DNA from: Candidatus Hermodarchaeota archaeon
GTDB lineage: Archaea; Asgardarchaeota; Hermodarchaeia; Hermodarchaeales; Hermodarchaeaceae
Length of the DNA: 21,141 nucleotides
NCBI GenBank assembly: GCA_016839805.1
Contig: JAEOTO010000029.1
Location: 1-21,141 of the forward strand
Reading direction: 5' to 3'
In this document: one piece after another, positions 503 to 21,122 of the stretch
Layout of the letters: every line of letters starts with the position of its first letter
How positions within the stretch are numbered: position 1 is the stretch's first letter
Notes under the pieces: generated by a model
The model's input: only the letters and a program-made list of their open reading frames with translations
What the model was told of the DNA's origin: nothing
Database searches by the model: none
Position numbers and translations under genes: made by a program

Positions 503-722
503 GAGTCAGCCTCCTGCACGCGTTGTCTCGCAAATCAATTACATACAGTCGTCTTAACAATTTCGTATAGTATGAAAATATTGAAGATATTCACTAGTTG
601 CTGGAAAAACGAACCTGAAGACAACCTGAGCAGCCCTGCAAAAGTTATGTACACTAAAAACATTAAACGTTCTATGGGATTTACATTTAGAACGATTATT
701 TTTTCATGTTCTTGGTGGTTTC

Positions 723-1802: not shown

Positions 1803-1902
1803 ATCTTCAGTTTTGTGGTTGAATTGAATCTCAAAAACTAGTTAAGGTTAGAGATGGAATTCTCCTCAATCCCAAACAGAAACGATAGGATGTACGAGTT
1901 TT

Positions 1903-2373
1903 ATGGACGAAAAACGCGTTGAAATCACAACGGGTTTTGTTCAAGCAGAATATAATTTCTGGGTTGGCAAATACATGGACAAATTTTACGATGGGTTACT
2001 AACAAAAAAGATAATTGGCAATAAATGTCCGACCTGTGCAAAAGTTTTCGTTCCTCCCAGAAAGATTTGTGGCAAATGTTTTGAGACTATAGATTTTGAT
2101 AATCATTGGGTAGAACTTGATGGAATCGGAACGTTACTCAATTTCACGACAACACCCTATATGATAACTGAAGCGGGGAAGGAAAAAACATCAGAGACGA
2201 CTCTGATTGGAATGGTCCGATTTGAGGGAAGTGATACTGCTGTTGTATATAAGATTCTGGGCGTTGAAGAACAGGGTCTGAAAATTGGGCTGAAGATGCA
2301 AGTCGTTTGGAATGATTCCTTGAAGGGGTGCCCCTCGGATATAAAGGGCTTTACACCATTCAGGGGGGCATAA
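1903..2373 (+). CDS. DUF35 family Zn-ribbon/OB-fold protein (thiolase/aldolase partner)
   Basis: CPTC-x(10)-CGKC with VFVPPR, G-x-L-x-NFT and a C-terminal KIGLKMQVVW OB-fold pattern. It sits next to thiolase-fold genes. Confidence 0.92.
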   Translation: MDEKRVEITTGFVQAEYNFWVGKYMDKFYDGLLTKKIIGNKCPTCAKVFVPPRKICGKCFETIDFDNHWVELDGIGTLLNFTTTPYMITEAGKEKTSETTLIGMVRFEGSDTAVVYKILGVEEQGLKIGLKMQVVWNDSLKGCPSDIKGFTPFRGA

Positions 2374-2375
2374 TA

Positions 2376-3521
2376 TTGGACAAGGTAGGAATTGTCGGGT
2401 ATTATCAAGTACAGCCCTCTTTAAATCTAAACATGGGACGGTATGAAATGATTTTCAATACCGTCAGAGGGGCCCTTGATAGTGTGGGTTTGAAGAGAAA
2501 GGACGTCACGTCCGTGGTAAGTGCTACGAATGATTACTATGATGGACGGACTATTTCCAATTGTTTTACTGTTGAAGCGGGCGGAGCGTACTTGAAGGAT
2601 GAATCAAAAGTGGAAATGGATGGCGCCTATGCCGTCTACTATGGTCTTCTACGTGCCCTATCCGGGCATCACAAATTAGTACTAGTGTGGGGTGGAAGCA
2701 TGCCTTCCTGTTTTCCCTATAGTTCCTCCACCCTTCTTTCAACGGATCCGACTTTTGAAAGACCTCTTGAAATAATTAACGATCTCACTGCAGGGGGGCT
2801 TCAAATGAGAGCATATATGAACAAGTTTGATGTGCCCGCAGAAGACATTGCACAGGTTGCCGTAAAGAATCATAAAAACGCCGCTAAGAATACCTCATCT
2901 TTACCTGAATCACGAATGCCTGATATTTCAACAGAAACCGTCCTTAATTCGGATGTGCTCAGTTCTCCGGTCACCGAGTTGATGTACTCCCAACCATGTG
3001 ACGCGGCAGCCTGCATATTATTAGCTCCCGAACAACAGGCATTAAAGATTCGAGATGATCCAGTGTGGATAACCGGGGTTGGTTATTCTCAAGAAACCTA
3101 TTACCTTGGAGACAGAGATCTCAGTCGAAGTCAATCTATGCAAGATGCAGCTCAAATGGCGTTTCGGATGGCAGGAGTTAAAGATGCGAAAAAGGAAATT
3201 GATGTTGCCGAATTGTACGAGCATTTTTCGCATGAAGAGTTAATTTTCGCCGAGGCTCTTGGCTTCTGTGACCCCGGTCAGGGACCATCCTTATCAACTG
3301 AAATCAGTGGCGGAATACCCATCAATCCATCGGGTGGGGGCATGAGTGGAAATGCACCTTGTGCCACTGGAATCATTCGGCTTATCGAAGCTATCAAGCA
3401 GATTACCGGGGAGGCAAAGGGGTATCAGGTCAAGGATGTTCAACGTGCTATAGCGTCCGGTCAAAACGGGTTTTGTGCGCAAACTAACATGCTCTTTGTA
3501 TTGGAAGGGGGTTCGAAGTAA
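2376..3521 (+). CDS. SCP2-thiolase-fold protein, Ltp4-like (no catalytic Cys)
   Basis: ESKVEMDGA replaces the thiolase nucleophile region. Other motifs are PCDAAAC, DVAELYEHF and INPSGG. The likely start is TTG 2376, just after the DUF35 stop, rather than the ORF-track start at 2328. Confidence 0.85.
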   Translation: MDKVGIVGYYQVQPSLNLNMGRYEMIFNTVRGALDSVGLKRKDVTSVVSATNDYYDGRTISNCFTVEAGGAYLKDESKVEMDGAYAVYYGLLRALSGHHKLVLVWGGSMPSCFPYSSSTLLSTDPTFERPLEIINDLTAGGLQMRAYMNKFDVPAEDIAQVAVKNHKNAAKNTSSLPESRMPDISTETVLNSDVLSSPVTELMYSQPCDAAACILLAPEQQALKIRDDPVWITGVGYSQETYYLGDRDLSRSQSMQDAAQMAFRMAGVKDAKKEIDVAELYEHFSHEELIFAEALGFCDPGQGPSLSTEISGGIPINPSGGGMSGNAPCATGIIRLIEAIKQITGEAKGYQVKDVQRAIASGQNGFCAQTNMLFVLEGGSK

Positions 3522-4774
3522 TGGGTGACCGGCAAGTGGCGGTTGTCAGTGCAGGATTCTGTGAGCACGCTTCAAAACGATCTGATGTGAATATGGCAGA
3601 GCTGGTCAATGAAGCCGTTCACAACTGTTTGAACAACGCTAATTGTGACATTGATGCCGTTGATGCCATCGTAGCTGGGAATATGCCCGCATTTGAAGGC
3701 GCGAATCTTCCCGAATTATGGATGACTGATTGGTTAGGCGCTCGAAACAAACCACTTATGAGAGTAACCACAGGAGGGTCGACCGGGGGATCGGTTGCCA
3801 TAGCCGGTTATTATAATGTCGCAGCGGGGCTTCCTGGGATAGAGACGGTGTTGACTGTTGCTTTCGAACAGCAATCCTGTGGAAATACAAGCGTTGGACT
3901 TTCCTCAGTGGCCTTGGGAGAGATTTCAATCGTGAACGCGCTGGGTTTACCTGCTGAGAGTGCCATGAGAATCTTTGGGGCGGGGGCCGCTATTGGCATT
4001 GCATCATATCAGGCAATAAACTACATGAACCGCAGTGGCTGTACAGAGGAAGACCTCGCCCGAGTCGTTGTTCAGAATCGACGGAATGCCGCGAAGAATT
4101 GGTGGACGCATCTGAAAATGCCCGATTATACAATCGAACAAGTGATGGCCACACCCTATATCTCCTACCCGTTACGATTTGGGATGGTCACACCGGCATC
4201 AGATGGGGCTTGTGCTATGTTATACACAACCGAAGAAAAAGCCAAAGACTTTGCCGATATCCCCGCTTACGTCAATGGAGTAGCGAGCGTGAGTCATGAA
4301 ACAGCGATTTTAGGTGTCGGTGGTGCAGGCGCTGGTCAACTTGATCCCTGTGAACAGGTGGGCGCGGTCGAATCAGCAAAATTAGCCTATGCGCAAGCGG
4401 GAATCTCCTTTCCCGAAAAAGAAATTGATTTTGCAGAGGTCTATTCGCCATTTCCCAATCAGGAACTAATGTGGTTAGAAAGACTGGGATTATTCGAAGA
4501 AAACACGGCCCATCTTCGATATCGAGATGGAACCACTGCGCCCAATGGAGAATTACCTGTAAACTGTTCAGGAGGCGTAAATTCAACGAATGCGATCGGA
4601 GCCTCAGCGCTTGAACGTGTCGCTGAAGCGGCTCTGCAGATTATGGGGAAGGCGGGAAATCAAGTCCCCAAAACCGTGCATTCTGCCATTGGGCACGGAT
4701 GGGGCGGGTGTATCAATTTGGTCACCTTGACCGTATTAAGCGATCAACCACGAAGAAAATGGAGGGCGCACTAA
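3521..4774 (+). CDS. SCP2-thiolase-fold protein, Ltp3-like (no catalytic Cys)
   Basis: Motifs PLMRVTTGGSTGGS, SDGACA, AEVYSPF..ELMWLERLG, VNCSGGVNSTNAIGAS and QIMGKAG. It overlaps the upstream stop (TAATG). Confidence 0.87.
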   Translation: MGDRQVAVVSAGFCEHASKRSDVNMAELVNEAVHNCLNNANCDIDAVDAIVAGNMPAFEGANLPELWMTDWLGARNKPLMRVTTGGSTGGSVAIAGYYNVAAGLPGIETVLTVAFEQQSCGNTSVGLSSVALGEISIVNALGLPAESAMRIFGAGAAIGIASYQAINYMNRSGCTEEDLARVVVQNRRNAAKNWWTHLKMPDYTIEQVMATPYISYPLRFGMVTPASDGACAMLYTTEEKAKDFADIPAYVNGVASVSHETAILGVGGAGAGQLDPCEQVGAVESAKLAYAQAGISFPEKEIDFAEVYSPFPNQELMWLERLGLFEENTAHLRYRDGTTAPNGELPVNCSGGVNSTNAIGASALERVAEAALQIMGKAGNQVPKTVHSAIGHGWGGCINLVTLTVLSDQPRRKWRAH

Positions 4775-4775
4775 C

Positions 4776-5288
4776 ATGGTGCGACTTGAATATATCAAAA
4801 AGGAATATGAGAAAACCCGTCAGATGCCCGGGAAGTGGTATTTAACGTCTTGTCGCTACAAATTTAATATTACTCGCTTCCAGCCATTTCTTTCAGCCTT
4901 AAAGGAGAAACGCTTGATTGGTTTAAAATGCCGGAGCTGTAATACGGTAAGTTTTCCCCCAAAACTGGTGTGTGGAAAGTGCCTAACGCGCCCCGATCAG
5001 TGGGTTTCGCTTCGTGAAACGGGAATCGTGGCTACTTTCACTGCCAATTACATGAAAGATGAAACCACGGGGGAGGCGAATGCATTTCCTGTGATTGCAG
5101 TTCGGCAAGATGGGGCTGACACGACATATCTGACTCAACTCAATCCTAAGGTCAAATTTGAGGATGTCTATGTTGGCATGCCCGTGAAGATCAAATGGAA
5201 GGATAACACCGAAGGCAATCTAAACGACATTGACTACTACGACTGTATAGACGATCCAACTCAGAAGATGGATTCACTCACTAAGTAA
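4776..5288 (+). CDS. DUF35 family Zn-ribbon/OB-fold protein
   Basis: CRSC..SFPPKLVCGKC, GIVATFT and VYVGMPVKIKW. Confidence 0.92.
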   Translation: MVRLEYIKKEYEKTRQMPGKWYLTSCRYKFNITRFQPFLSALKEKRLIGLKCRSCNTVSFPPKLVCGKCLTRPDQWVSLRETGIVATFTANYMKDETTGEANAFPVIAVRQDGADTTYLTQLNPKVKFEDVYVGMPVKIKWKDNTEGNLNDIDYYDCIDDPTQKMDSLTK

Positions 5289-5332
5289 GATTGGTTGAGG
5301 TCCCTACTACTGGCAAGTACCTATAGGAAGTA

Positions 5333-6901
5333 ATGATGGTGACTTTAGGTAAATTAGTTGAAAAGCAAGCCCAGAAATATCCGGAGAAAATCTTCCTTTA
5401 CTGGCAAGAAGAGACTGTGACATATTCTCAGTTCGATGAACTAACTAACCAAATAGCAAACATGTTGTATGATTTAGGGGTTCGAAAGGGGAATGTAGTC
5501 AGTGTTCTGCTCCCAAATATGTTAGAGTATGTTTACTTCTACCTCGGTATTCCCAAACTTGGTGCGATAGTGGGACCAGTGAATGCGTCATTCAAGGCGC
5601 GCGAGGTTCAATTTGTTGTCAGTCATTCTGAGGCAATGGTGCTCATTACGACTCCACAGTTCATGGAACTCGTTGATGCCATTCGAGAAGATCTCCCCCA
5701 ATTGAAGCATGTGGTAGTGATTGGAGAACCAACACCGGGTACTTTGAATTATCAGGACTTAATGATGAAAGCAGCAGTCACGCCCCCACCACGTGTCCCG
5801 ATAGATGAAAGGGAGGATCCCGCCGCGATACTCTATACGTCCGGAACCACTGGGTTTCCTAAGGGTGTGTTACAGACGCACTTTAATATTAAACGAAACG
5901 CTGAGATGATTATCAACCATCTTGATGTAAAAACCGAAGAGACCCATCGATTCATGCTCATTTTACCACTCTTCCATGTTAATGCCCAAATTGTCACCAT
6001 CATGACCCCTCTCAGCATGGGCGCCAGTACCATTTTAACACCAGGATTTTCCGCAAAGAAACATTGGGAAACCGTCGCAAAATACCGAGCCACTACTTTT
6101 AGCGCGGTTCCTACTATTCTCTCGATCTTACTAAGAATGCCCCACAAGGATTTAGATCTGTCCTCAATAAAGTGGATTATTTGTGGCGCCGCCCCTTTGC
6201 CTGTTGAAGTGATGAAAACCTTTGAATCGACATTCAACTGTAGCATAGTCGAAGGGTACGGGCTCACAGAAGGAACCTGTGCTTCATCCTGTAATCCATT
6301 GCCCTCGGAGACAGAAGATAAACGAAAAGTTGGAAGCATTGGTGTGCCATTACCCACTACAAAAATGAAAATTGTCAATGATCAAAGCAAGGAGGTTTCC
6401 ATAAATGTGACTGGAGAAATCCTTTGCAAAGGTGATCACATCATGAAGGGGTATTTTAAGAATCCCGAGGCCAATGCCGAGACTCTCAAAGAGGGCTGGC
6501 TTTACACAGGAGATCTCGGTTATGTCGATGAAGATGGGTTCTACTACATTGTAGGTCGCAAAAAAGACCTGATTATTCGCGGTGGCGAGAATATCTATTC
6601 CCGGGAAGTTGAAGAAGTTCTCTATACATATCCAGGCGTATTAGAAGCCGCGGTTATTGGAGTGGAAGATGAAATCTATGGAGAAGTTCCAAAGGCATTT
6701 ATTGTGATGAAAGACGGCCACACCGCTACTATCGACCAAATCATCACGCATTGTAAAGAAAATGTAGCTGATTTCAAAGTCCCCCAATACGTTGAGTTCC
6801 GTAATGAGTTACCTAAGAATCCAACTGGAAAAATTATGAAGCGACCACTCCGCGAAGAGGAAGAAGCCAAACAGACAAACTTACAACCAACCAGACGTTA
6901 G
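5333..6901 (+). CDS. Long-chain fatty acid/acyl-CoA ligase (AMP-forming, FadD-like)
   Basis: AMP-binding motifs LYTSGTTGFPKG, EGYGLTEG, WLYTGDLG, RKKDLIIRGGENI and LPKNPTGKI. Confidence 0.95.
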   Translation: MMVTLGKLVEKQAQKYPEKIFLYWQEETVTYSQFDELTNQIANMLYDLGVRKGNVVSVLLPNMLEYVYFYLGIPKLGAIVGPVNASFKAREVQFVVSHSEAMVLITTPQFMELVDAIREDLPQLKHVVVIGEPTPGTLNYQDLMMKAAVTPPPRVPIDEREDPAAILYTSGTTGFPKGVLQTHFNIKRNAEMIINHLDVKTEETHRFMLILPLFHVNAQIVTIMTPLSMGASTILTPGFSAKKHWETVAKYRATTFSAVPTILSILLRMPHKDLDLSSIKWIICGAAPLPVEVMKTFESTFNCSIVEGYGLTEGTCASSCNPLPSETEDKRKVGSIGVPLPTTKMKIVNDQSKEVSINVTGEILCKGDHIMKGYFKNPEANAETLKEGWLYTGDLGYVDEDGFYYIVGRKKDLIIRGGENIYSREVEEVLYTYPGVLEAAVIGVEDEIYGEVPKAFIVMKDGHTATIDQIITHCKENVADFKVPQYVEFRNELPKNPTGKIMKRPLREEEEAKQTNLQPTRR

Positions 6902-6902
6902 G

Positions 6903-6950
6903 AATACTTGTCTTCGAAACTCAGCTGAATGGCACATAGCGCACGGAAAA
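6903..6950 (+). repeat. Dispersed repeat, right-hand box only (GTCTTCGA at 6910)
   Basis: GTCTTCGA-N14-GCACATAGC-N5-GAAAA aligns without gaps to the right half of the full copies at 14038 and 21030. It begins just after the ligase stop. Confidence 0.6.
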
Positions 6951-7247
6951 ATGGTCTGCTCTAGCCTTAAAAAGAAACATTTTCCTCCCAAAGCTACAGC
7001 ACGCCTTCTAACTATATTTACAAATCCTACAACAAGTTAGTCTAGCGGTATCTAGGTGGCAGGGTGCAGAAAATTTGTCGGTACTTGCTAATAGTGAGGA
7101 CAATACCTAAACATGTTGCGTATTAGTAACCGGTTCCTCATGCCTTCATCGGTTCACCACAATTTTAACTTATATTGTACCCCTATGCAAGCAAGGTGCA
7201 TTAAAACAGAGCCTGTTCGTACAGTATGAACAATAGGATGGAGGTGA

Positions 7248-8770: not shown

Positions 8771-8794
8771 AGAAAATTGAGGTCAGAATAAATC

Positions 8795-8843
8795 ACAATT
8801 ATGTCTTCGACATCTTGTAAAGCGTCTAATAACACAAAGAAAA
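8795..8843 (+). repeat. Dispersed repeat, right-hand box only (GTCTTCGA at 8803)
   Basis: ACAATTATGTCTTCGA-N14-TCTAATAAC-N5-GAAAA, located between convergent genes. Confidence 0.65.
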
Positions 8844-8902
8844 TCAGGTTACAGCAACACTTTGCTGCTTATTTTTTTAAGAATTGGTCGGAGTTGCCTG
8901 GG

Positions 8903-9511
8903 TTAAGATGTTGGGCTCGATTTCGTAGGTTTCTTACCTAGCTTTTCAAGACTAATTTTTTCTTCCTCTAGGTGCAATTTTGTATACTGATGTAGAAGCG
9001 AAAGATAAAGAAACTTAGCCTGATCTTCGCTATTGGCTTCGCCTTCATCGATTCTTTTCTCTATAGTTTCTGCGATTTCTTGAGCGTATTCATCGATTAA
9101 CGGATTTACGAGCTTATGGAGATCAAGGTCTTTGTCTCCAATCTTTCCTAAAAGGTATCCCCAAAGAAAGGTCTTGATTGGGAGCAACTGGGCTTCCTGT
9201 TCGGCTGGAGAGAGGGACCTCAGTTTCGGTACTTGCAGCGGGAAAACGGCGCGATAGAATTTCCGGATTCCGCCACGGTAGTATTCCTCCCGCGTCTTGG
9301 TGATTAGGTTCTCTTCTTCAAGGCGCTTTAAGTGGTAGCTGATTCGGCTTTTGCTTAGGCCCAACATCTTTGCTAATTCACCGAGGGAGTGCTCTTCTTC
9401 GGTTAAATGCCGTAGAATGCTGGCGGTAATAGGACGAACCAGCATAGACGCTGACTTGGGCTGGATGATAGATCGAGCCTGTGTGTTAGGGGGATTTCCC
9501 AGGGTCTTCAC
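8903..9511 (-). CDS. ArsR-family winged-helix transcriptional regulator
   Basis: ILRHLTEEEHSLGELAKMLGLSKSRISYHLKRLEEENLI helix-turn-helix with a GGIRKFY wing. It is divergent from the opine DH/B12 operon. Confidence 0.88.
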   Translation of the reverse strand: MKTLGNPPNTQARSIIQPKSASMLVRPITASILRHLTEEEHSLGELAKMLGLSKSRISYHLKRLEEENLITKTREEYYRGGIRKFYRAVFPLQVPKLRSLSPAEQEAQLLPIKTFLWGYLLGKIGDKDLDLHKLVNPLIDEYAQEIAETIEKRIDEGEANSEDQAKFLYLSLLHQYTKLHLEEEKISLEKLGKKPTKSSPTS

Positions 9512-9570: not shown

Positions 9571-9626
9571 AATACAGTTAAATTTTTGACGGTTAAAAAT
9601 TTGACGGTCAAGAATTTGACGGTTAA
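9571..9626. promoter_or_regulatory. Tandem palindromic operator array (TTGACnGTYAA x3 plus one degenerate copy, 15-bp period)
   Basis: TTGACGGTTAA at 9586, TTGACGGTCAA (perfect palindrome) at 9601, TTGACGGTTAA at 9616, and degenerate AATACAGTTAA at 9571. TATA-like TTTATAAA (9532) and CTTATAT (9562) are adjacent. Confidence 0.75.
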
Positions 9627-9731
9627 ATACTCTCGAGTTTACCTCAGAGGCTAGTTTGAGTGCAGGGCTAGAATTTTACTCCACACGAAATACAGCCCCT
9701 TCAACCCCTCTGTGACTTACCCCATCAGGAG

Positions 9732-10886
9732 ATGAATGCAATGTCTGCCAAACTGGCAATATTAGGCGCGGGACACGGAGGCCAAGGGCTAGCAGCCTAT
9801 CTTGCCCTTGCTGGTCACGAAATATGTCTTTACAATCGATCAAAATCCCGACTACTTCCAATACAAAAGCAAAATGGGATCCATGTTGAGGGAGTTGTTA
9901 ATGGGTTTGCTAGGTTAGCCAGTTGTACCTCTAACATTCGAAAAGCGCTCTCCGATGTGAATTTAGTTTTTCTTGTGGTTCCTGCGTCCGCCCATCGTGA
10001 TATCGCCCAACAATGCGCTCCCAATCTTACACCCGAACAAGTGATTGTACTTATTCCAGGACGAACAGGTGGTGCATTAGAGTTCTCTGCCATTGTGGAG
10101 AGTCTCACTGGTTGGCGGCCAATTATTGCAGAGGCACAGACATTTCCCCTTGTAAGTCGAGTGATAGAGTCTGGAAACGCTTATGTCTCGGCTATTAAGT
10201 CAGAACTTCCCGTAGCTGCTTTTCCAGCAAAACAAACCAAAATGATCTGCGACTTGATTTCGTCCGTTCTCCCAGGTGTCCGGGAGGCCGAAGATGTACT
10301 CGAAACGGGTCTTACCAATATTGGTTCCGTATTTCATCCCGCGCCATTGCTTCTCAATATTGGACGAGCCGAAACCACCAACGGCCAATATAACCACTAT
10401 CTCGAGGGCGTCTCACCTTCGATTGCGCGCTTCATCGAGCATATTGACGCAGAAAGGGTTGCTGTCGGGCACGCCCTTGGTAAGGATATCCTTTCTGCGG
10501 TTGAATGGTTACATAAAGTCTACGACTCAAAAGGAAACACCTTGTATGAATCCTTGCACACGACTTCCTGTTACCAAGGATTGGGAGCCCCAAATTCGCT
10601 AAACCATCGATATATCTTCGAAGATGTGCCAACCGGGTTGGTTCCAATTGCTGCAATTGGTGAATTAGTTGGCGTACCCACTCCTACAATTCAAGCAACA
10701 ATTACCATGGCATCACAATTATGTGGTCGTAACTTCTGGCGGGAAGGACGTAACGCAGAAAATCTTGGTATTACGGATCTCTCTCCAACTGAATTACTGA
10801 TGTATGTCTGGGAGGGGTCTCTTGCAGCCCTCGAGGTCGCTGGCGAACTGGCCTTGGTCACAGAAGAAATGGAGGAGGCTGATTGA
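9732..10886 (+). CDS. NAD/NADP octopine/nopaline (opine) dehydrogenase family protein
   Basis: Rossmann motif ILGAGHGG, plus PGRTGGALEF, LTNIGSVFHP, IDAERVAVG and HRYIFEDVPTGLVP of the opine DH C-terminal domain. Confidence 0.9.
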   Translation: MNAMSAKLAILGAGHGGQGLAAYLALAGHEICLYNRSKSRLLPIQKQNGIHVEGVVNGFARLASCTSNIRKALSDVNLVFLVVPASAHRDIAQQCAPNLTPEQVIVLIPGRTGGALEFSAIVESLTGWRPIIAEAQTFPLVSRVIESGNAYVSAIKSELPVAAFPAKQTKMICDLISSVLPGVREAEDVLETGLTNIGSVFHPAPLLLNIGRAETTNGQYNHYLEGVSPSIARFIEHIDAERVAVGHALGKDILSAVEWLHKVYDSKGNTLYESLHTTSCYQGLGAPNSLNHRYIFEDVPTGLVPIAAIGELVGVPTPTIQATITMASQLCGRNFWREGRNAENLGITDLSPTELLMYVWEGSLAALEVAGELALVTEEMEEAD

Positions 10887-12782: not shown

Positions 12783-12878
12783 AGATGAGCACACCTAGAT
12801 TTGGATTAATCTTCTCTTATTTTTTCCCTTCAAAAACCAAAGTTTCGGAGAACGGTTTTCTCACAGTCAAGAACACAG

Positions 12879-12918
12879 GTAGATATGTCTTCGACACTTG
12901 CACAGGTCTGCAGATAAC
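12879..12918 (+). repeat. Dispersed repeat, right-hand box only (GTCTTCGA at 12887)
   Basis: GTAGATATGTCTTCGACAC-...-GCAGATAAC (spacer one base longer than most copies), located between convergent genes. Confidence 0.65.
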
Positions 12919-12927
12919 CCCATAATC

Positions 12928-13380: not shown

Positions 13381-13932
13381 ATGGCAATGGCTTTCAATTC
13401 CAAAAACTTTGGACGGTTAATCGAAGGGTATACAATCATAATCGGGATCGGAGTAGTCATCGCCATAGCTAGCATTATAGCTTTTGGCATTCTGCTTATG
13501 CTTGGCTTCCCTGGGTTTTCTGTTCCTCTCATTTTTCTGTTCATTGGTATGTGGATTGCTGCAAGCCAATGGAATGAACTTGGTAGAATGAAAATTGTAG
13601 CTGGCTTTGTTGCCTCAGTTACTTACTCAACGCGAATTTCCACAGCCAGCAATTTACTCAAAATGAAAACCCACGAGTTCATTCATTGTGTAACCAAGCT
13701 AATCACACGCGGTGTCACTGAAATCGACTTATTCCCTGAAGTTGATGCCTTTGGCCCAAAGGGGTCGAAACGACCGCAATCACTTCCCCAAGCCTATCGC
13801 CCAAGTGCTATTACACCATTAAATCCTTATCAACGAATCACTACCATCCTTCAATGGATTGGACTTATTGGCACACTCATTGCCATCATTTACCATATCT
13901 TCGCACTATTTCGCATTCTTGGAACAATCTAA
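13381..13932 (+). CDS. Hypothetical membrane protein (2 N-terminal TM, soluble middle domain, C-terminal TM)
   Basis: Long ORF with clear hydrophobic segments. The start is uncertain (13339, 13381 or 13387). Confidence 0.65.
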   Translation: MAMAFNSKNFGRLIEGYTIIIGIGVVIAIASIIAFGILLMLGFPGFSVPLIFLFIGMWIAASQWNELGRMKIVAGFVASVTYSTRISTASNLLKMKTHEFIHCVTKLITRGVTEIDLFPEVDAFGPKGSKRPQSLPQAYRPSAITPLNPYQRITTILQWIGLIGTLIAIIYHIFALFRILGTI

Positions 13933-14037
13933 GCATCGTCAGATACACAATAACGATAACATAGGTTTCAATAGACTGTTTACTAGGCTGAAATGAAGGA
14001 TTTTTAATTCTATGAAATTCACCCTCTCCTCCAAGAC

Positions 14038-14130
14038 TACGATGTGAAACAAATCATCTTTCACGTCATTCGTAAGAAATCGCATATATGTCTTCGACAC
14101 CTATTCGAATAGCGTAAAACCCATGGAAAA
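14038..14130 (+). repeat. Dispersed bipartite repeat, full copy 1
   Basis: TACGATGTGAAACAAATCATCTTTCACGTCATT-N11-GCATATATGTCTTCGA-N14-GCGTAAAAC-N5-GAAAA. Confidence 0.9.
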
Positions 14131-14204
14131 AACCTACTACAAGAAACACTCCAGTAAACATTTCTCTTCCGAAAATAGATTACTATATAATTTAAACAGG
14201 TGAT

Positions 14205-14912
14205 GTGATTTTCATGGTCAATATCGGACGAAGACTTCTTCTCCTCTTAATTGGACCCATTCTTTTCGCCCTGGGATTAGTCTTGGGGCTAGTTATCCTG
14301 ATTTTTATTATGTTTCCTACTTTGATGATCCTCTTCTACATCGGACTGCCAGCCATCATTGTGGTCACCGAATTACTATTTCTCTACATCGTGTACAAGT
14401 TTCTCCACCAAGAATCGTCATCACTGTCAGAACTAATAGGCTATGACCGACAAACACTTAGCCAAGATGTTGTGTGGATCGTTGTAACCTTTGGTATCTT
14501 CTATTTGACATTCTGTGCGGGGTTCCTTGTATTATGGCTCATCAATCCCCCGTATTATGCCATCTATATCTCTTATTTTCGCACACCGCTACCGCTCTTC
14601 TCCATGCTGTTCTACACCATCGTTGTATCCATCACCGCAGGCATAGCCGAAGAAACAATCTGGCGTGGATACGCCATCACTCGCCTAGAAAAGGTTACTT
14701 CCAGACGATGGCTAGCTGTCTTTATTGCTGCCCTCTCTTGGAGCCTTTTTCATTTTGACCCCTTCAAAACACCAGTCACCCTCATTAGCGGAGTAATTCT
14801 CGGCAGCCTCTATCTAAAACTTCAACGGGCTTTTCCTCTTATAGTCGGACACACGCTATTCAACATCATTGGCTATGCCGTTCCCTTCCTCCTCTTCATC
14901 TGGCTCCCTTAA
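14205..14912 (+). CDS. CPBP (Abi/CAAX type II) intramembrane glutamic endopeptidase
   Basis: AEETIWRGY, WSLFH and GHTLFN motifs in a multi-TM protein. Confidence 0.92.
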   Translation: MIFMVNIGRRLLLLLIGPILFALGLVLGLVILIFIMFPTLMILFYIGLPAIIVVTELLFLYIVYKFLHQESSSLSELIGYDRQTLSQDVVWIVVTFGIFYLTFCAGFLVLWLINPPYYAIYISYFRTPLPLFSMLFYTIVVSITAGIAEETIWRGYAITRLEKVTSRRWLAVFIAALSWSLFHFDPFKTPVTLISGVILGSLYLKLQRAFPLIVGHTLFNIIGYAVPFLLFIWLP

Positions 14913-14963
14913 CTCTTCTTCAAAGGTAAATATCCTGTATTGAGAAAATCGCTTAATCGAATA

Positions 14964-14996
14964 TTAATTACGAAACACATCATCTTTCACATCATT
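14964..14996 (+). repeat. Dispersed repeat, palindromic site only (left arm degenerate)
   Basis: TTAATTACGAAACACATCATCTTTCACATCATT has an intact right arm and a core with one substitution. There is no downstream GTCTTCGA box, and it lies between convergent genes. Confidence 0.8.
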
Positions 14997-15056
14997 GTAT
15001 TCGTCACAAACGATTTGAAAGATTTTTTTTAGGTTCATTGGGATGGAAAAAGCTAA

Positions 15057-15572
15057 TCAATCGTGTCCACTGTTAAGTTTTCTCAGCTGCTGTACGAGCT
15101 CCTTAAAAATCGGTATAGCTTGATTTAATGTCTTTTCCAGCTGTTCTAATTGTTGTGCTAACAATTGGACTTCTGTTATCTTTGATTCATTCAGTCGAGA
15201 ACGATCCAACCTGCGAGCAGACTCTGCCAATGAAACAATGGGCTCATGAACTCGTTCAGCGATAATAAGCCAACGTTCAATTGCACTTACAAATAGTGAA
15301 GTCATGGACGTTCCAATTTGATAGAGATAGCTCCGGTGGCCCGGTTCTTTGAATCGCCGGACTGAACCTAAATTTACTAATTGGTCTAAAGTCCGGCTGA
15401 CGGCTGAAATACTATAGCCTGTCCATTGAGCAATACTCTTTTGACTACGTGGTTGTGGAGCCAAGAAAAGACTGGCGAGAATCCGACCATGAATTGGCTT
15501 GAATCCTCTTTCTTCAGCAATTTGTTCTAGCAATTGAATGAACTGGGTGCGTACAGATTGGAAATCAGACAC
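15057..15572 (-). CDS. GbsR/MarR-family transcriptional regulator
   Basis: GFKPIHGRILASLFLAPQPRSQKSIAQWTGYSISAVSRTLDQLVNLG HTH with a C-terminal coiled coil. The likely start is GTG 15572, because the ORF-track start at 15734 overlaps the divergent gene. Confidence 0.85.
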   Translation of the reverse strand: MSDFQSVRTQFIQLLEQIAEERGFKPIHGRILASLFLAPQPRSQKSIAQWTGYSISAVSRTLDQLVNLGSVRRFKEPGHRSYLYQIGTSMTSLFVSAIERWLIIAERVHEPIVSLAESARRLDRSRLNESKITEVQLLAQQLEQLEKTLNQAIPIFKELVQQLRKLNSGHD

Positions 15573-15614
15573 GATGGATACCGTAGTAAATGTTGTAATG
15601 CAAAGATTTATATA

Positions 15615-15643
15615 TTTTGTTAATTTTGCATAATTTGACAAAA
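15615..15643. promoter_or_regulatory. Imperfect inverted repeat, candidate operator in the divergent promoter
   Basis: TTTTGTTAATTT-TGCAT-AATTTGACAAAA lies immediately after TATA-like TTTATATA (15607-15614), between the regulator and yip1. Confidence 0.45.
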
Positions 15644-15656
15644 ATAGCAAAAATTG

Positions 15657-16265
15657 GTGATTAAATTGCCTATAAAAACCGACTTTACAAAAGCTTGGAA
15701 AATCATTGTACACCCAAAGGAGCTCTTCAGCCAAGAGCGGGATATCAAAGGTTATTGGCCTGTGCTCCGATTCTATCTATTATTAAATGTAGTACTCGCA
15801 GTACTAACGCCCGTTGTCAACTGGTTTCATGTTCCCAGCGACATCGTGCACGCAGGCACTAATGCACAGATGGGAGCCTTCATTGTTGCTCCTTTCCTCG
15901 AAAGTAGTACAGGTATTAGCCGCTATGTTTGGGTTGGTTTACTGACCTATGCAGGGAATATATTCAAATTCCCAATTCTAGGTCTTATCTTTCATGGCTT
16001 TGCCAAGATTCTTCGTTGTCGCGGGACCTTCTTAGACTCTTTCAAAGTAGGCGTGTATTCAACTGCACCCATGTTATTATTCGGATGGATCCCCTTCTTT
16101 GGACTCATCTCAGGATTATGGGTCGGTTACCTCTATGTGGTCGCATTGAACCAGCTCCACGAAGTCTCCTTTGGCCCCGCAATCGCGCTCATTAACCTAA
16201 TGATTGGTGTACAGCTTGTTTGGGCATTCCTGTTTGGCTGGATTGGAAGTCCTATCCCATGGTAA
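15657..16265 (+). CDS. Yip1-domain membrane protein
   Basis: WKIIVHPKELFSQ, ~5 TM segments, GTFLDSFKVGVYSTAPMLLFGWIP and LWVGYLYVVALNQLH. The start is uncertain (15654-15667). Confidence 0.82.
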   Translation: MIKLPIKTDFTKAWKIIVHPKELFSQERDIKGYWPVLRFYLLLNVVLAVLTPVVNWFHVPSDIVHAGTNAQMGAFIVAPFLESSTGISRYVWVGLLTYAGNIFKFPILGLIFHGFAKILRCRGTFLDSFKVGVYSTAPMLLFGWIPFFGLISGLWVGYLYVVALNQLHEVSFGPAIALINLMIGVQLVWAFLFGWIGSPIPW

Positions 16266-16661
16266 AAAGAATCCACCTAATTACAGTCTATTCATTTGTT
16301 CAGTTTTTTTGCACACGATAGCTGTTATTCTTAGTTTAGTAACTTCGATAGGAATAAACGTACTAATTCGTCGTCGAAAACTGCAGGTTCGAGTTAAACG
16401 TATCAAAGATAAATCTCCCCTTCCTTGCCAAATGCCGGATCACAGACAACAAACAGCCCTCCAAACTTTCTAAGGTTTCCAGACAAATATACTACTTTAG
16501 GGATGACGTAGGAAATACCGGGTGCGGAACGATGGTATGCCTACTCTGTTCAAATCTAAATGTCACATATTCTACCATAGAGTCTCTACCCCATCGCAGT
16601 TATACAGATATTTCATTTTTGCATCATGATTTAATTAGTAAAAAGTTGCATAGATTGCTCT

Positions 16662-16859
16662 ATGTCATCAGAAGGAATAACTGCAACGAAAGTCTTTCAA
16701 TTAATCCTGGTTCTGATTAGCATGATCCTTGGTATTACAGCGGTGGTCGTCTCATATTTTGGCTTACCACCCCCTTATGATGCTGAGCCACTGTTAGGAT
16801 TTGGATTATTCCTCCTAGCTCTGGCTGGCTTAATTGGTGCTCTAAAGAAAAAAACCTAA
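16662..16859 (+). CDS. Small two-TM hypothetical protein
   Basis: 65 aa, ATG start, two hydrophobic helices and a basic C-terminus (KKKT). Confidence 0.65.
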   Translation: MSSEGITATKVFQLILVLISMILGITAVVVSYFGLPPPYDAEPLLGFGLFLLALAGLIGALKKKT

Positions 16860-16930
16860 GAATGACCATAGACTTTCCGGGTTTGCTAATCGTAGCAGGA
16901 TATTTACAGAACTCTCGATAAGGACCTCGC

Positions 16931-17279
16931 TCAGAAAAAAATAGTTGATATGCCTGAGGCTAATTCGAGCAAGTTCAAGCGAATGGGGGATGTAGAAGCA
17001 TATACACCTAATTTTGATTTAATCTGTTCATTCGCCATTGAAAAACAATAGCCTTTTCTTTCATCATTAACTATTGTTTTACTTTGGGGGGAGTTATATG
17101 CCGGTGGGAAAAGTGCCACTTTAAGCTCATTTCCGATATCTTTCTCTATGAATTGGATTAAATTTGATAAGCTTTCACTGAGTGTTATCTTTTTAGACCA
17201 GTAATGGGTGATGTCCGCTTTACTGAGATTTTGAGAGTAAAAGAGAAAGGATCGTTCTCTCCAGAATCTGATTAGAACC
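16931..17279 (-). pseudogene. Probable 3' gene fragment running into the repeat
   Basis: A ~115-codon, protein-like, AT-rich open frame whose only upstream ATG lies inside repeat copy 2. Confidence 0.35.
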
Positions 17280-17371
17280 AATGACGTGAAACAAATCATC
17301 TTTCACATCATTAGTAAGAAACAGCATCTACGTCTTCGAATTCCATCAGAAGAGCGCATAACACCCGAAAA
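17280..17371 (+). repeat. Dispersed bipartite repeat, full copy 2
   Basis: AATGACGTGAAACAAATCATCTTTCACATCATT-N11-GCATCTACGTCTTCGA-N14-GCGCATAAC-ACCC-GAAAA. Confidence 0.9.
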
Positions 17372-17434
17372 AACGGAGTGCTCTATCCTTAATAAGCACC
17401 AGGCTCTTGGACTTAGTTGTGAGGTGATGCACAT

Positions 17435-18472
17435 ATGCCCCGTCTGTTTCGAAGACGATCAAAAGCAATTGGGCTTCCACCTGGAACGCCAGTTTATGTT
17501 GGTGAGCAGCGACCCAGAAAAACAGTAATCAATATTATTGATTACAATGAAGATTCCTTCCAAGAGAAAGAAATCGGGGATGTCGCAGAATGTTCTGATT
17601 TTACCGACCGTCCAACTGTTACCTGGATCAAAGTCGAAGGTTTTAACAACCTTGAGATGCTTAAAAAGCTCTGTGAAAAATACGCACTACATCCATTAGT
17701 CGTTGAGGATATATTGAATACCACCCAGCGACCCAAAATCGAGGATTTCGGCGAATACGTCTTTATTCTGCTCAAAATGCTCAACTTCTCGGATGAAAAA
17801 GGCCTGATGGTCGAACAGATTAGCATTATTCTGAGCCAAAACTACGTTATCTCCTTTGAAGAGGGCCACGGCGAAACGTTTACTCCCATTCTAGAACGAA
17901 TACAAGTGGGAAAGGGAATCATTCAGAAAATGAAAAGTGATTACCTCGCCTTTTCCCTTTTGGATGTCGTGGTTAAAAACTACTTCAAAGTCATCGAGAA
18001 GGTAGAAAACAGAATTGAATTCTTAGAGGATAACCTAGTAGAAAATCCCACAACTGAAACTCTGCAAGGCATTCAAACCCTAAAAGAGCAGGTAACCTTA
18101 TTACGCAAATGGATTTCGCCTTTGCGGGAGGTCACCAGTCGGCTAGAACGTGGTCGTATTTCTCTCATAAATCAACCAATTCTCGTATACTTTCATGATG
18201 TATATGAAAATGTAATCCAAATCGCCGAAGCGGTAGACACTTTCCGTGATAAAATTCCAGTCATGCTTGATATCTTCTTTTCCAGCATCAGTTACCACTT
18301 AAACGAAGTTATCAAAATCCTTACGATAATAGCCACCATCTTCATCCCGCTTTCTATACTCACAAGCATTTTTGGTTTGACCATATATCTCCCCCCTCTC
18401 ATTTCAATACCAATAATTATCGCTCTAATTATTCTAATGATGTTATACTTCCGGAGGAAAAAATGGCTCTAG
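17435..18472 (+). CDS. corA: CorA-family divalent cation transporter (GMN signature replaced by GLT)
   Basis: GLPPGTPVYVG, LHPLVVEDILNTTQRPKIEDF, EQISIIL, YFHDVYE, LNEVIKILTIIATIFIPL and YFRRKKWL. A GAGGTGA RBS is present. Confidence 0.93.
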   Translation: MPRLFRRRSKAIGLPPGTPVYVGEQRPRKTVINIIDYNEDSFQEKEIGDVAECSDFTDRPTVTWIKVEGFNNLEMLKKLCEKYALHPLVVEDILNTTQRPKIEDFGEYVFILLKMLNFSDEKGLMVEQISIILSQNYVISFEEGHGETFTPILERIQVGKGIIQKMKSDYLAFSLLDVVVKNYFKVIEKVENRIEFLEDNLVENPTTETLQGIQTLKEQVTLLRKWISPLREVTSRLERGRISLINQPILVYFHDVYENVIQIAEAVDTFRDKIPVMLDIFFSSISYHLNEVIKILTIIATIFIPLSILTSIFGLTIYLPPLISIPIIIALIILMMLYFRRKKWL

Positions 18473-18484
18473 CTGAAACTCAAG

Positions 18485-18533
18485 TCATGTAAGTCTTCGA
18501 AACATAGGAGAACGGCATAAAATATAGGGGAAA
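18485..18533 (+). repeat. Dispersed repeat, right-hand box only (GTCTTCGA at 18493)
   Basis: TCATGTAAGTCTTCGA-N14-GCATAAAAT, located between convergent genes. Confidence 0.6.
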
Positions 18534-18601
18534 CCCCCCGGTTCCAGAAGTAAAATCGTCGAAAAGGCACTGCTTCATGATTTCTCGAAGGACAATTCTG
18601 C

Positions 18602-19064
18602 TCAGAAAATAAACGGTGGACCACTGGCAACCACGGTTAAATGCCCCCTAAAATCATTCCATGGGTATCCTGATGAAGATACCAGTTGAATGTTACATCC
18701 CCCGGGAACTGTAAGAAAGGGGGTTGCATGGCTTTCTGCAGAGTACGCTAAATAACTGTAAACCAGGTTGTCATTCAGGTCAGTGACTTGAATCCCCCAG
18801 TAATCCGTCACATACGTCACATGAACTGAAATCTTCACTCCGGTATGGGGAACAGTTAAAGTGATATTCGTGAAATCGCTAATATCGGGGAAACCAAGAA
18901 GCTCAACGGTTCTAGAAAAACGACCCGTGGTGCCGCCATCCCTGAATAGAAGGAGACGCCACTAAACACCACAATCAACACCACTACGACAGCAATCGTC
19001 TTCGCATTGGCCCTGATCTTTGTCGCGGTTTTTCACGTTTCTTCCTGGATCTCGTCTTCGCCAA
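18602..19064 (-). pseudogene. Membrane-anchored beta-rich protein split by two -1 frameshifts
   Basis: An AGGAGG RBS and TTG 19064 begin MAKTRSRKKREK, continuing as TATKIRANAKTIAVVVVLIVVFSGVSFYSGMAAPRVVF and then SRTVELLGFPDISDFTNITLTVPHTGVKISVHVTY...PPFIF. The frame switches are best placed at 5-mer homopolymers (19029-19033 and 18916-18920). Confidence 0.65.
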
Positions 19065-19206
19065 GACCAGTCCTCCTACAATAATCGAAAGTTAAGATCC
19101 TTCTAGTATAAAGTTGTTAAAAAGAAAGAGAAAGGCATCCAATTTCTCGAAGTTCTTGCTTGTCTTTATTAAAAAAAGTAATCTCAACAACGAGGTAAGG
19201 ATTACC

Positions 19207-19301
19207 TATGATGTGAACCAAATCATCTTTTACGTCATTGGGAAAAAACAGCAGCTACGTCTTCTACAATCATTCATGCGAACATATAACGCACCCGAAA
19301 A
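19207..19301 (+). repeat. Dispersed bipartite repeat, full copy 3
   Basis: TATGATGTGAACCAAATCATCTTTTACGTCATT-N11-GCAGCTACGTCTTCTA-...-ACATATAAC-GCACCC-GAAAA. Confidence 0.88.
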
Positions 19302-19553
19302 CCACTTAGAAAATCCAATCGTGTGCAAAACTACTGCTACAGGCAGGGAAGAGAAACACCTATAAACACTCTCGGACTTCCCTCTTGTTGTTAGCAAATA
19401 GGATTTAGTTTCTCTTTTTGAAGAGCTTTAGCTTATCATGCTAGGCAGCTATTCCCCGGAATTGCATTCTTCGGAACAGCACGGTTGCGTGACACAGCCA
19501 CCTATCTCTGAGAGATAACCCCATCTCAACTCAAGCAAATCGAGGTGAACACT

Positions 19554-19748
19554 ATGGTAAAAGGCACAATCAAATGGTTTAATCCCGACCGCAACTACGG
19601 CTTCATCGAACGTGAAACCGGTAGCGACGTATTCGTGCATGGCAGCGAAGTCGAAGGCGCCCACTTACTCAAAGAAGGCGACAAAGTCAGCTTCAAAATC
19701 GAAGAAGGCGATCGAGGTCTAAAAGCCACACAGGTCGCAGTAGAATAA
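19554..19748 (+). CDS. csp: Cold-shock domain protein (CspA family)
   Basis: KGTIKWFN, RNP1 NYGFI, RNP2 DVFVH and LKEGDKVSF. A GAGGTGA RBS precedes ATG 19554. Confidence 0.95.
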   Translation: MVKGTIKWFNPDRNYGFIERETGSDVFVHGSEVEGAHLLKEGDKVSFKIEEGDRGLKATQVAVE

Positions 19749-19878
19749 ACCACCCAATCACCCCGTGACCCAATCCAATCTCAGTACACCCATTTCACAC
19801 TGATTATTATCAAACTCAGTCGAAACAAGACACTGTGTTTGACCCTAGACCCCCATACAATGAAGGAGATGATAGAAT

Positions 19879-20061
19879 ATGAGCGAAGAAACCAATAATG
19901 AAAAACAAGCTGAAGGACGCGTGATGCGAGATTTGCAGCGTCGACCACGATCACGTAAGAACCGTGAATACGTCCTCATATCCGGTGAACGCGTCAAGCG
20001 AACAGATATCGGGCGGACCGAAGAAGACGAAACAGAAGAAGCTGAACGCAAAAAAACTTAA
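19879..20061 (+). CDS. Small charged hypothetical protein
   Basis: 60 aa, ATG with an AGGAG RBS upstream, Arg/Glu-rich. Confidence 0.5.
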   Translation: MSEETNNEKQAEGRVMRDLQRRPRSRKNREYVLISGERVKRTDIGRTEEDETEEAERKKT

Positions 20062-20078
20062 TTGCAAAACTCTAATCG

Positions 20079-20258
20079 ATATTCCTTAGCTGGTTTTGGT
20101 CTCTTGTAGTATCGCACAGCCTGTTGACGGTTTGCTGAATAGAGCCTAACCCCTCTTTCTCCCCGAAGGAATCGTTGGAGGTTATCATATTCAGCTTCCA
20201 AGATAGCTCTCTTTCTCTTAGTGAGTCTGACAACGCCACATTTGACGGTCAACCTCAC
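20079..20258 (-). pseudogene. tnpB: Truncated TnpB (IS200/IS605, Cas12f-like) N-terminal fragment
   Basis: RLTVKCGVVRLTKRKRAILEAEYDNLQRFLRG..LYSANRQQAVRYYK..KEY resembles the N-terminus of archaeal TnpB. There is no RuvC or Zn-finger domain, and an IS left-end hairpin lies directly upstream. Confidence 0.7.
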
Positions 20259-20305
20259 CTGCTTACTAGTGAGTTTACAGCTTTTCTTAAAAACCCTCAA
20301 AATCT

Positions 20306-20355
20306 AATTCATCCACCGATTGAAGTCGGTGGTCTTCTTGGATAGATTTGATAAA
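20306..20355 (-). mobile_element. IS200/IS605-family left end (hairpin) with putative TTTAT target motif
   Basis: The minus strand reads TTTAT|CAAATCTATCCAAGAAGA-CCACCGA-CTTCAA-TCGGTGG-ATGAATT, a perfect 7-bp stem upstream of the tnpB fragment. Confidence 0.7.
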
Positions 20356-20414
20356 GTATTACTCGTTTTTTAGTCAGTAGCTTGGGTCTAAAACTATATA
20401 AAAAAAGAGATTTT

Positions 20415-20987
20415 TTACGCAAGTAGAAAGTTTAGTACGATGTGCACAATCAATACGATGTATAATCCACTTATGAGACTCAGGTGGAGCATCCTGTTAG
20501 TATGAGGTTGAAGCTTTTTTCCACCTTTCAATGTAATGGGATTATATCTATACAAATATCCAGTGGCAACTAGGATAGCGACGAGAATATAGAGCGCTAC
20601 GCCACCACCGAGATCAGGATAAAATTGGAGTGGGCGACTCAGTTGTCCGGCCAAATGGATGGACACTAATAAGAAAGCGGTAGTAAACCCGAATATATGG
20701 AGGTTTAGCAGAATTTTATATCGCTGGGGGAAACGACGTTTCAGTATATAATATAATGGTGCGAAAACCAGGATAAAAGCAGACCCTATTATCCCCATCC
20801 AGTGAGAAAAGCGATATGGGCCGAGGAAAAATCCTGTATCAACAAAATCAAGTACAACTAATATGGTAACGATGATGATTGTGATGATATAGATTGTTTC
20901 TAATAAAAAGGCCTTATTCCTCAGTAAATTTTCTTTATCCTCAATTTTTGGAGATTGCGTCATAGACCATAGTGATATTGGAGTCAA
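20415..20987 (-). CDS. Five-TM membrane protein with intramembrane histidines (cytochrome b/ferric-reductase-like TM domain?)
   Basis: His residues in or near TM segments: SHWMG, NLHIFG, SIHLAG, MLHLS and IVHIV. The start may be 20966. Confidence 0.55.
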   Translation of the reverse strand: MTPISLWSMTQSPKIEDKENLLRNKAFLLETIYIITIIIVTILVVLDFVDTGFFLGPYRFSHWMGIIGSAFILVFAPLYYILKRRFPQRYKILLNLHIFGFTTAFLLVSIHLAGQLSRPLQFYPDLGGGVALYILVAILVATGYLYRYNPITLKGGKKLQPHTNRMLHLSLISGLYIVLIVHIVLNFLLA

Positions 20988-21029
20988 TTTAAATTTTGCG
21001 AGAAAAGTTCCTATTTACTACTGATAGTG

Positions 21030-21122
21030 AATAATGTGAACCAAATCATCTTTCACATCATTGATTAGTAATTGCACTTATGTCTTCGACTTCCTGTAAG
21101 GTGGCGAATGACAACTTGAAAA
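21030..21122 (+). repeat. Dispersed bipartite repeat, full copy 4
   Basis: AATAATGTGAACCAAATCATCTTTCACATCATT-N11-GCACTTATGTCTTCGA-N14-GCGAATGAC-N5-GAAAA. Confidence 0.9.

Follow-up and report, generated by a model that had tools for sequence, protein, structure and literature searches.

What are the 33-bp palindromic sites that recur in a contig of an Asgard archaeon, and do genes change places within them? The stretch of DNA analyzed here (the window) is the whole of contig C19, 21,141 nucleotides, from a 2.3-Mb, 87% complete assembly (G000) of a Candidatus Hermodarchaeota archaeon. An initial annotation, made from the window alone, described a dyad of two inverted 11-bp arms around an asymmetric core, likened it to the lox and dif sites of tyrosine recombinases and took the core to be the crossover site. 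We find the dyad to be the opening third of a one-directional, roughly 110-nt junction repeat, which marks the joints between gene cassettes in one Asgard genus (15 genomes). The dyad is probably a recombinase site but not the main crossover, which lends the lox/dif-like reading partial support. Breakpoints mapped by comparing sequences indicate no fewer than two zones of exchange, chiefly a short box, GTCTTCGA, and to a minor extent the dyad or its right edge.

Architecture of the Junction Repeat

The repeat was delimited with a repeat finder and by alignment of 15 copies from the genome. The dyad comes first and is followed by a linker of 19 nt (consensus tgTAAGAAAcaGCAtgTAc). Next, 20 bp to the right of the dyad, stands the GTCTTCGA(A) box, which is invariant, and last comes a B module that carries GC..ATAACAC and ends in a run of A. 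About 75 nt of conserved sequence extend beyond the dyad on this one side. Positions within the repeat are given as x, counted from the first A of AAATCATCT (Table 1). Across 12 species exact motifs are kept with variable sequence in between, and the best-kept part of the dyad is its center. The right arm is far better conserved than the left, and information content in a 71-copy alignment is highest at GAA-CAAATCATCT-TTCA and at GTCTTCGA.

The 33-base dyad pattern has exactly four plus-strand matches in the window, with 0–2 mismatches, and none in 100 dinucleotide-preserving shuffles; the four full copies and the one left-degenerate copy first reported are confirmed. Is the core also near-invariant, as the initial annotation had it? 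The core CAAATCATCT is the same in all four full copies, which differ at arm positions, and in a larger sample the center is still largely conserved though not invariant, being canonical in 72 of 111 distinct dyads. Between the 11-bp arms this center, CAAATCATC, measures 9 bp, outside the 6–8 bp known for such sites. A 1-nt insertion (CAAATCTATCT) lengthens it to 10 bp in 9 of the 111 dyads, drawn from eight species and including one in the window's own genome. The proposed 13+7+13 layout would require the 13th pair to be mismatched. The insertion-center dyad of the window's genome (C20:6681-6572, minus strand) lies 505 nt from a canonical copy on C20, and both forms share arrays. If the center mattered for exchange, the CAAATCTATCT variants would make a second compatibility class. 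The linker occurs in a small number of distinct alleles (TAAGAAACAGCATGTAC, TAGGAATTGCACTTAT, AAAGATTCCTGCATGTAT and TTCGAGATAGCATTTGT) that recur across species, with examples at 17313-17331 and 21063-21081 of the window. A third Xer-like arm beside GTCTTCGA was considered and rejected, the shared part being only the tetranucleotide AYGT.

Does the dyad work as duplex DNA or as a folded strand? Its 11-bp arms are able to pair, and in principle the site could fold as a hairpin, either of RNA, serving as terminator, stability element or small RNA, or of DNA in the manner of attC. We consider this extremely improbable. Only one arm pair, Y/R, is strongly polymorphic among the 111 distinct dyads (CG 13, CA 23, TG 25, TA 41), and its 13 compensatory double changes are what independence predicts (Fisher p = 1.0). 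At the remaining pairs, one-sided changes are almost never compensated (0–4 per pair), and those of the left arm are frequent. Variants of the left and right arms assort almost freely. In the window, copies 1 and 3 have T.G arm mismatches, copies 2 and 4 have C.A or A.C, and copy 1 has an additional outer C.A mismatch; the mismatches would wobble on opposite strands in different copies. The initial annotation had noted this and concluded that no RNA strand is favored, and both statements hold. Folding the whole repeat as a single strand gives no consistent result (z between -3.9 and +0.9 for six strands), and just the short stem of the dyad forms. There is no run of T after the dyad, and Rfam returns no match at E <= 1 for the whole window. 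The lack of covariation, the weak folds and the empty Rfam search together point to a double-stranded protein site with one subunit per arm.

Cassettes Between the Repeats

By profile search the genome has junctions of three kinds: some 20 are full units, some 15 lack the dyad and begin in the linker, and four consist of a dyad only. They are co-oriented, 0.5–4 kb apart and clustered on contigs C1, C19, C20, C39, C42 and C25. Every window junction with a box has GTCTTCGA or the variant GTCTTCTA on the plus strand; the dyad-only junction at 14964 has none. The cassette to the right of the weak junction at 12878..12923 is preceded by a full repeat in G006:C142.

What do these junctions separate? 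Array contigs of 11 species and 26 metagenome contigs gave 224 profile hits, and junctions were grouped by flank homology more than 130 nt from the repeat, to exclude a repeat subfamily that extends further right. Sixteen families share the right-hand cassette, 18 share the left-hand cassette, and one pair shares both. The same packet is found in differing neighborhoods with homology stopping at the repeat, which makes these gene-cassette arrays in the functional sense. Pieces of the window's right half are present in all 15 genomes of the genus in other orders. For example, the segment with a 190-aa gene comes before the cold-shock segment in G014:C9, and G006:C142 has a cold-shock cassette, then a unit, then the cassette that starts at window position 12887. 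The flank families, along with the indel and replacement between strains and the recurrent CorA cassette described below, show that directly repeated copies bound exchangeable packets, a point in favor of the initial annotation.

The cold-shock gene and the 60-aa lysine/glutamate-rich open reading frame (ORF) next to it form a conserved pair (window 19545-20061) that occurs as a cassette in nine species; a second copy, 75% identical, lies outside the arrays at G000:C2:26194-26861. The recurrent end of homology at window position 21006 resembles a cassette border but is no junction; upstream of the 190-aa gene the sequence has an indel or has diverged there.

Position of Exchange

At which point of the repeat are cassettes exchanged? 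Among the 16 right-hand families, about 11 have homology starting at GTCTTCGA and about 4 have it starting where the B module ends on the right; in none does it extend into the linker or dyad. Linkage between segments of 64 full units breaks at the same place: it is strong inside the B module (r = 0.41, z = 10), weak across the dyad and linker (0.18–0.20) and lost from linker to B (r = 0.05, z = 0.9).

Closely related sequences narrow the position further. L099, a 14.4-kb contig, is 99.88% identical to G014:C58 over 11.5 kb and collinear with it except for a 3.7-kb two-cassette indel. Identity holds through x = 46 on the left of this indel and begins at x = 36 on its right, which places the joint in TAT-GTCTTCGA; of the two partner junctions, one lacks the dyad. 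L084 tracks G014:C9 (99.3% over 9.6 kb) through dyad and linker and L105 from x = 48 (98.9-100%). The switch of parent thus falls between the linker and x = 48, within TATGTCTTCGAA. In another study, contigs of two runs carry the CorA cassette of the window at 98.7% identity. They match the window only from box to box, beginning at 17332, the G of GTCTTCGA (or at 17356, where one of the contigs starts), and stopping at 18502, where GTCTTCGAAA ends. They continue past 18502 into a different B module, at a cassette end that has no dyad.

The left-hand families point to the minor zone. In all 18, homology enters the dyad and is gone by x ~20. G006:C325 and G012:C40 share rare variants of both arms along with their left flank and then diverge, which puts their breakpoint at the right edge of the dyad and not in its core. 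L083 compared with L087 and L104, and L094 compared with L098, are identical to x = 16-21 and unrelated beyond, which allows a crossover anywhere from core to edge; no donor sequences were found for the L083 and L094 events. Every exchange that could be placed thus falls in the GTCTTCGA box or where the dyad ends on its right. No event is resolved to the core, and some partner joints have no dyad at all; the core is not supported as the crossover site. Exchange points between strains, which the initial annotation suggested mapping, are seen at the repeat: three strain events map to GTCTTCGA, and two pairs are compatible with the core.

Proposed Link to XerA

Which protein would recognize the dyad? 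As a reference for the arms we used the genus's own 11-6-11 dyads linked to xerA. A free-spacer search with ATGAAGTRAAA-N6-TTTYACTTCAT finds one or two 11-6-11 dyads in 12 of the 15 genomes, against 0–1 with a reversed control. Their consensus arms, ATGAYGTGAAA and TTTCACRTCAT, are those of the junction unit, while their centers differ between species. They lie 2–7 kb from xerA on the same contig in five of five genomes checked (G000, G007, G008, G012 and G014). In the window's genome the xerA ORF is at L019:1429-2376 on the minus strand. The xerA product is a 313–315-aa tyrosine recombinase that passes the NCBIfam cut-off for the archaeal XerA equivalog (266 bits versus 220) and fails that of the integron-integrase model (148 versus 265). 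The sister genus (4 genomes, 80–83% complete) has no XerA, no 11-6-11 dyads and no repeat, a single phyletic contrast that is weak on its own. Co-evolution of the arms was reduced to presence or absence because G003, G005 and G010 have few assembled units and short xerA contigs. Of the tyrosine-recombinase layout first proposed, the inverted arms stand, being identical to those of the xerA-linked dyads; a center of 6–8 bp does not, and a crossover in the core is not supported.

Within the window's own genome, both arms with any spacer of 5–13 nt are found in the units and in two intergenic sites with a 6-nt center (Table 1), each 50–80 nt upstream of a gene start. The site on C28, searched with its spacer fixed, is absent from all other species searched. 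Two tyrosine recombinases were found in this 87% complete assembly, neither of which reaches the integron-integrase cut-offs; serine recombinases and Y1 HUH transposases were not found. The second, divergent tyrosine recombinase (359 aa, G000:C24:288-1367) is below all NCBIfam cut-offs, and in other species it shows no linkage to arrays. At its opposite end, contig C24 stops in a partial dyad (26187-26215) and therefore probably adjoins an array.

About 100 nt past the end of the xerA catalytic-domain match, five species have a GC-rich hairpin, GGAGAGCTAGG-N7-10-CCTAGCTCTCC. Its stem shows compensatory changes (CTAGG/CCTAG versus CTAGAG/CTCTAG) and its loop is variable. The hairpin is probably a terminator or RNA element of xerA.

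Alternative Explanations

How do a recombinase-type dyad and an exchange point outside it fit together? To our judgment there is an even chance that the dyad is a XerA docking site in a composite junction whose cassettes are chiefly exchanged at GTCTTCGA. XerA, or a protein of the same specificity, would bind the dyad as double-stranded DNA with one monomer per 11-bp arm. Cassettes would be gained, lost and swapped mainly by break-and-rejoin inside the box and more rarely within the dyad or where it ends on the right. The dyad might recruit or position the recombination machinery for the box, or it might be a second, less-used exchange site. Its fixed 9-bp center would make the sites of the array mutually compatible and incompatible with dif-type sites centered on 6 bp, so that the array would not recombine with dif. 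The one-sided conserved sequence may be compared to the accessory sequences of cer and psi that direct Xer reactions. A more specific proposal, that the genus has a gene-capture system in which the housekeeping XerA docks on this dif-armed dyad, whose center would not be exchangeable with dif, and in which GTCTTCGA is cut either by XerA in an unusual geometry or by a partner enzyme, is possible but doubtful.

Several observations weigh against XerA docking. No recombinase gene was found at the start of the array in the window, nor in or beside the arrays. About a third of the junctions have no dyad and still act as cassette boundaries, which means that the dyad is dispensable for at least one partner. 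The flanks of GTCTTCGA carry no recognizable recombinase arms. Linker alleles assort independently of both flanking cassettes, even in the sole pair sharing both flanks, and one fixed crossover cannot explain this. A center of 9 or 10 bp lies beyond the known range, so bound monomers may not cooperate. Finally, XerA is tied to the dyad by arm identity, gene neighborhood and the one phyletic contrast.

Could the dyad instead be a core site of the loxP or dif kind, with a recombinase on both arms, strand exchange inside a matching asymmetric center, and excision or integration between direct repeats? This we regard as unlikely. The arms shared with the xerA-linked 11-6-11 dyads, the well-kept center, the stop of left-flank homology within or at the dyad in 18 families, the free assortment of the two arms and the L083 and L094 comparisons would all suit such a site. 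However, its center is too long, including in a variant kept in eight species, and a core crossover would require right-flank homology to reach into the right arm and linker, which it never does. The breakpoint to the right of two shared rare arm variants, the clean exchanges at junctions without a dyad and the absence of events that resolve to the core also argue against it. It is quite unlikely, too, that no dedicated enzyme is involved and that the repeat is a dispersed patch of homology through which RadA-type or microhomology recombination and gene conversion shuffle the cassettes, stopping in the longest stretches free of variation, while the dyad is kept by conversion or for another reason. 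The repeat is a mosaic of independently assorting dyad, linker alleles and B module that breaks at conserved blocks, as this would predict, and the arrays have no linked recombinase gene. Yet the blocks are merely 8–20 bp long, and the break at the 8-bp GTCTTCGA is far sharper than at the longer, 19-bp invariant run of the dyad. The strict one-directional order, the exact motifs in 12 species and the arm identity with xerA sites point to recognition by a protein. That protein could be a transcription factor, the dyad being an operator or insulator that controls or separates cassette genes with no role in recombination. A double-stranded dyad without covariation, always upstream of a plus-strand gene in the window, agrees with this, as do the location of the dif-type dyads close upstream of genes and the winged helix-turn-helix (wHTH) regulators that cassettes often carry. 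But TATA-like and Shine-Dalgarno-like motifs, judged by eye, are found downstream of the whole repeat, 100–300 nt from the dyad, and the dyad is fixed in position to the cassette joint, not to gene starts, with flanking genes in both directions. Sites with the same arms also accompany xerA in all five genomes checked, and we hold an operator without any recombination to be very unlikely.

Relation to Known Systems

How does the composite junction compare with known recombination sites? Archaeal XerA/dif of Pyrococcus abyssi and Sulfolobus consists of two inverted 11-bp arms with a 6-bp center, present in single copy for dimer resolution (PMC2958812, PMC3646895). The junction dyad resembles it in its inverted 11-bp arms, here identical to those of dyads near a XerA-equivalog gene. 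It differs in its roughly 20 copies per genome, its fixed 9-bp (sometimes 10-bp) center, its approximately 75 nt of one-sided sequence and exchanges that fall outside the dyad.

Similar to integrons and to clusters of attC sites lacking integron integrases (CALINs), archaeal ones included (Ghaly 2022, PMC9668308), the arrays are made of co-oriented chromosomal repeats, one per joint, that bound accessory packets whose content and order vary between strains and species. Crossover takes place toward one end of an extended site, and the repeats are more alike within a lineage, as are the VCRs of Vibrio. In contrast to integrons, no IntI is present in the genome (87% complete) or at the head of the array. 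Neither the R'' (RYYYAAC) nor the R' (GTTRRRY) box of attC is conserved in the 71-copy alignment, and the junction repeat has no folded bottom-strand hairpin and no extrahelical bases. Unlike integron cassettes, the packets are often multi-gene, run in both directions and have apparent promoter-like motifs of their own (by eye). In function the array resembles a sedentary chromosomal integron or CALIN, yet it fails every defining feature of attC and IntI tested.

Acinetobacter plasmid dif modules have plain 11-6-11 XerC/XerD pdif sites in alternating orientation (PMC6449649, PMC13141974). They share with the present arrays packets that are bounded by host-Xer-armed sites and have no recombinase of their own, and in Acinetobacter these are shuffled between replicons. 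The junction sites differ from pdif in being co-oriented, chromosomal and composite, with a 9-bp center and a separate crossover box. In cer/psi and in the integrative mobile elements exploiting Xer (IMEX; CTX-phi and TLC-phi), exchange takes place at the Xer core site, and the accessory proteins ArgR, PepA and ArcA are known (PMC5357621). Here, too, a putative Xer core with a non-standard center (8 bp in cer) is joined to one-sided accessory sequence that would impose direction, and, as with IMEX, integrase-less elements are stacked in tandem between repeated Xer sites. What sets the junction apart from cer/psi and IMEX is that its resolved exchanges lie 20 bp from the core-type dyad; the five differences named for pdif hold for IMEX as well. 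A search of full texts turned up archaeal integrons (PMC9668308), but neither this repeat nor Asgard cassette arrays of the Xer type.

Array Contents and Surroundings

The array of the window begins right after an acyl-CoA synthetase gene and is preceded by a block of housekeeping genes; no tRNA genes were found at array borders. Between the junctions are genes for a citrate transporter, an ArsR-type regulator, an octopine-type dehydrogenase, a CPBP protease, a MarR-type regulator, Yip1, CorA, a cold-shock protein and small membrane proteins. Coordinates of the junctions and related sites are collected in Table 1.

Table 1. Parts of the junction repeat, junctions of the window and related sites in the genus
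Feature	Position	Strand	Source
Left arm	x = -13 to -3		
Core	x = -2 to 8		
Right arm	x = 9 to 19		
Linker	x = 20 to 38		
GTCTTCGA box	x = 39 to 46		
First array junction, no dyad; GTCTTCGA at 6910-6917, 8 nt past the acyl-CoA synthetase stop	6909..6963	+	nhmmer
Junction without dyad; GTCTTCGA at 8803-8810	8788..8856	+	nhmmer
Weak junction without dyad; GTCTTCGA at 12887-12894	12878..12923	+	nhmmer
Full junction repeat; box GTCTTCGA at 14090-14097, B module	14036..14136	+	nhmmer, alignment
Dyad copy 1, TACGATGTGAA-ACAAATCATCT-TTCACGTCATT	14038..14070	+	pattern search
Dyad-only junction; left arm degenerate, core CACATCATCT (one change), right arm intact, then no linker or GTCTTCGA	14964..14996	+	
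Full junction repeat; box GTCTTCGA at 17332-17339	17279..17385	+	nhmmer
Dyad copy 2, perfect match to pattern	17280..17312	+	pattern search
CorA cassette	17332..18492	+	recurrence in contigs of another study
Weak junction without dyad; GTCTTCGA at 18493-18500, borders the CorA cassette on the right	18486..18544	+	nhmmer
Full junction repeat; box variant GTCTTCTA at 19259-19266	19205..19308	+	nhmmer
Dyad copy 3	19207..19239	+	pattern search
Full junction repeat; box GTCTTCGA at 21082-21089, extends to contig end	21029..21135	+	nhmmer
Dyad copy 4	21030..21062	+	pattern search
dif-type dyad, ATGAAGTGAAA TGCTTA TTTTACTTCAT, intergenic	C28:27968		
dif-type dyad, ATGATGTAAAA CAGAAG TTTCACGTCGT, intergenic	C37:1571		
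Insertion-center dyad (CAAATCTATCT)	C20:6681		
xerA-side hairpin	G000:C28:23993-24021 (L080:1993-2021), G005:C189:125, G014:C16:7292, G012:C12:28133, G010:C124:8104		

Three tandem 15-nt repeats resembling ACGGTTAAAAATTTG lie at 9574-9627 of the window, between the divergent gene for the ArsR-type regulator (8903-9511, minus strand) and the octopine-dehydrogenase-like gene (9732-10886). A fourth such copy is found at 13404-13420, inside a 197-aa ORF. These repeats are possibly operator sites.

In genome G001 (L070 = G001:C204, 3262-4454 compared with window 1-625), the gene for TATA-binding protein lies about 570 nt from a junction unit and a cold-shock cassette. Consequently, the 6.2-kb NMO-thiolase-acyl-CoA-synthetase block of the window (723-6901) is absent there, and this block may itself be a large insert.

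Implications

Integrons, the textbook example of gene capture and shuffling, need a dedicated integrase and folded attC sites. Why, then, do these arrays matter? A lineage near the root of the eukaryotes has arrays tens of kilobases long that are integron-like at the level of strains and of species. The most palindromic element of their repeat is not the main exchange point, and the mapped exchanges correct the intuitive reading of the dyad. The chief interest lies in this separation of the exchange point from a recombinase-type dyad. If XerA indeed docks on the dyad while the DNA is cut at the box, this would be a site architecture undescribed for any tyrosine-recombinase system, new to recombinase engineering, and an independently arisen analogue of the integron. 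Should XerA or a partner recruited by it drive the exchange, the arrays would represent a second, independent route to gene-cassette systems, and they would provide a concrete mechanism for the turnover of the accessory genome in Asgard archaea.

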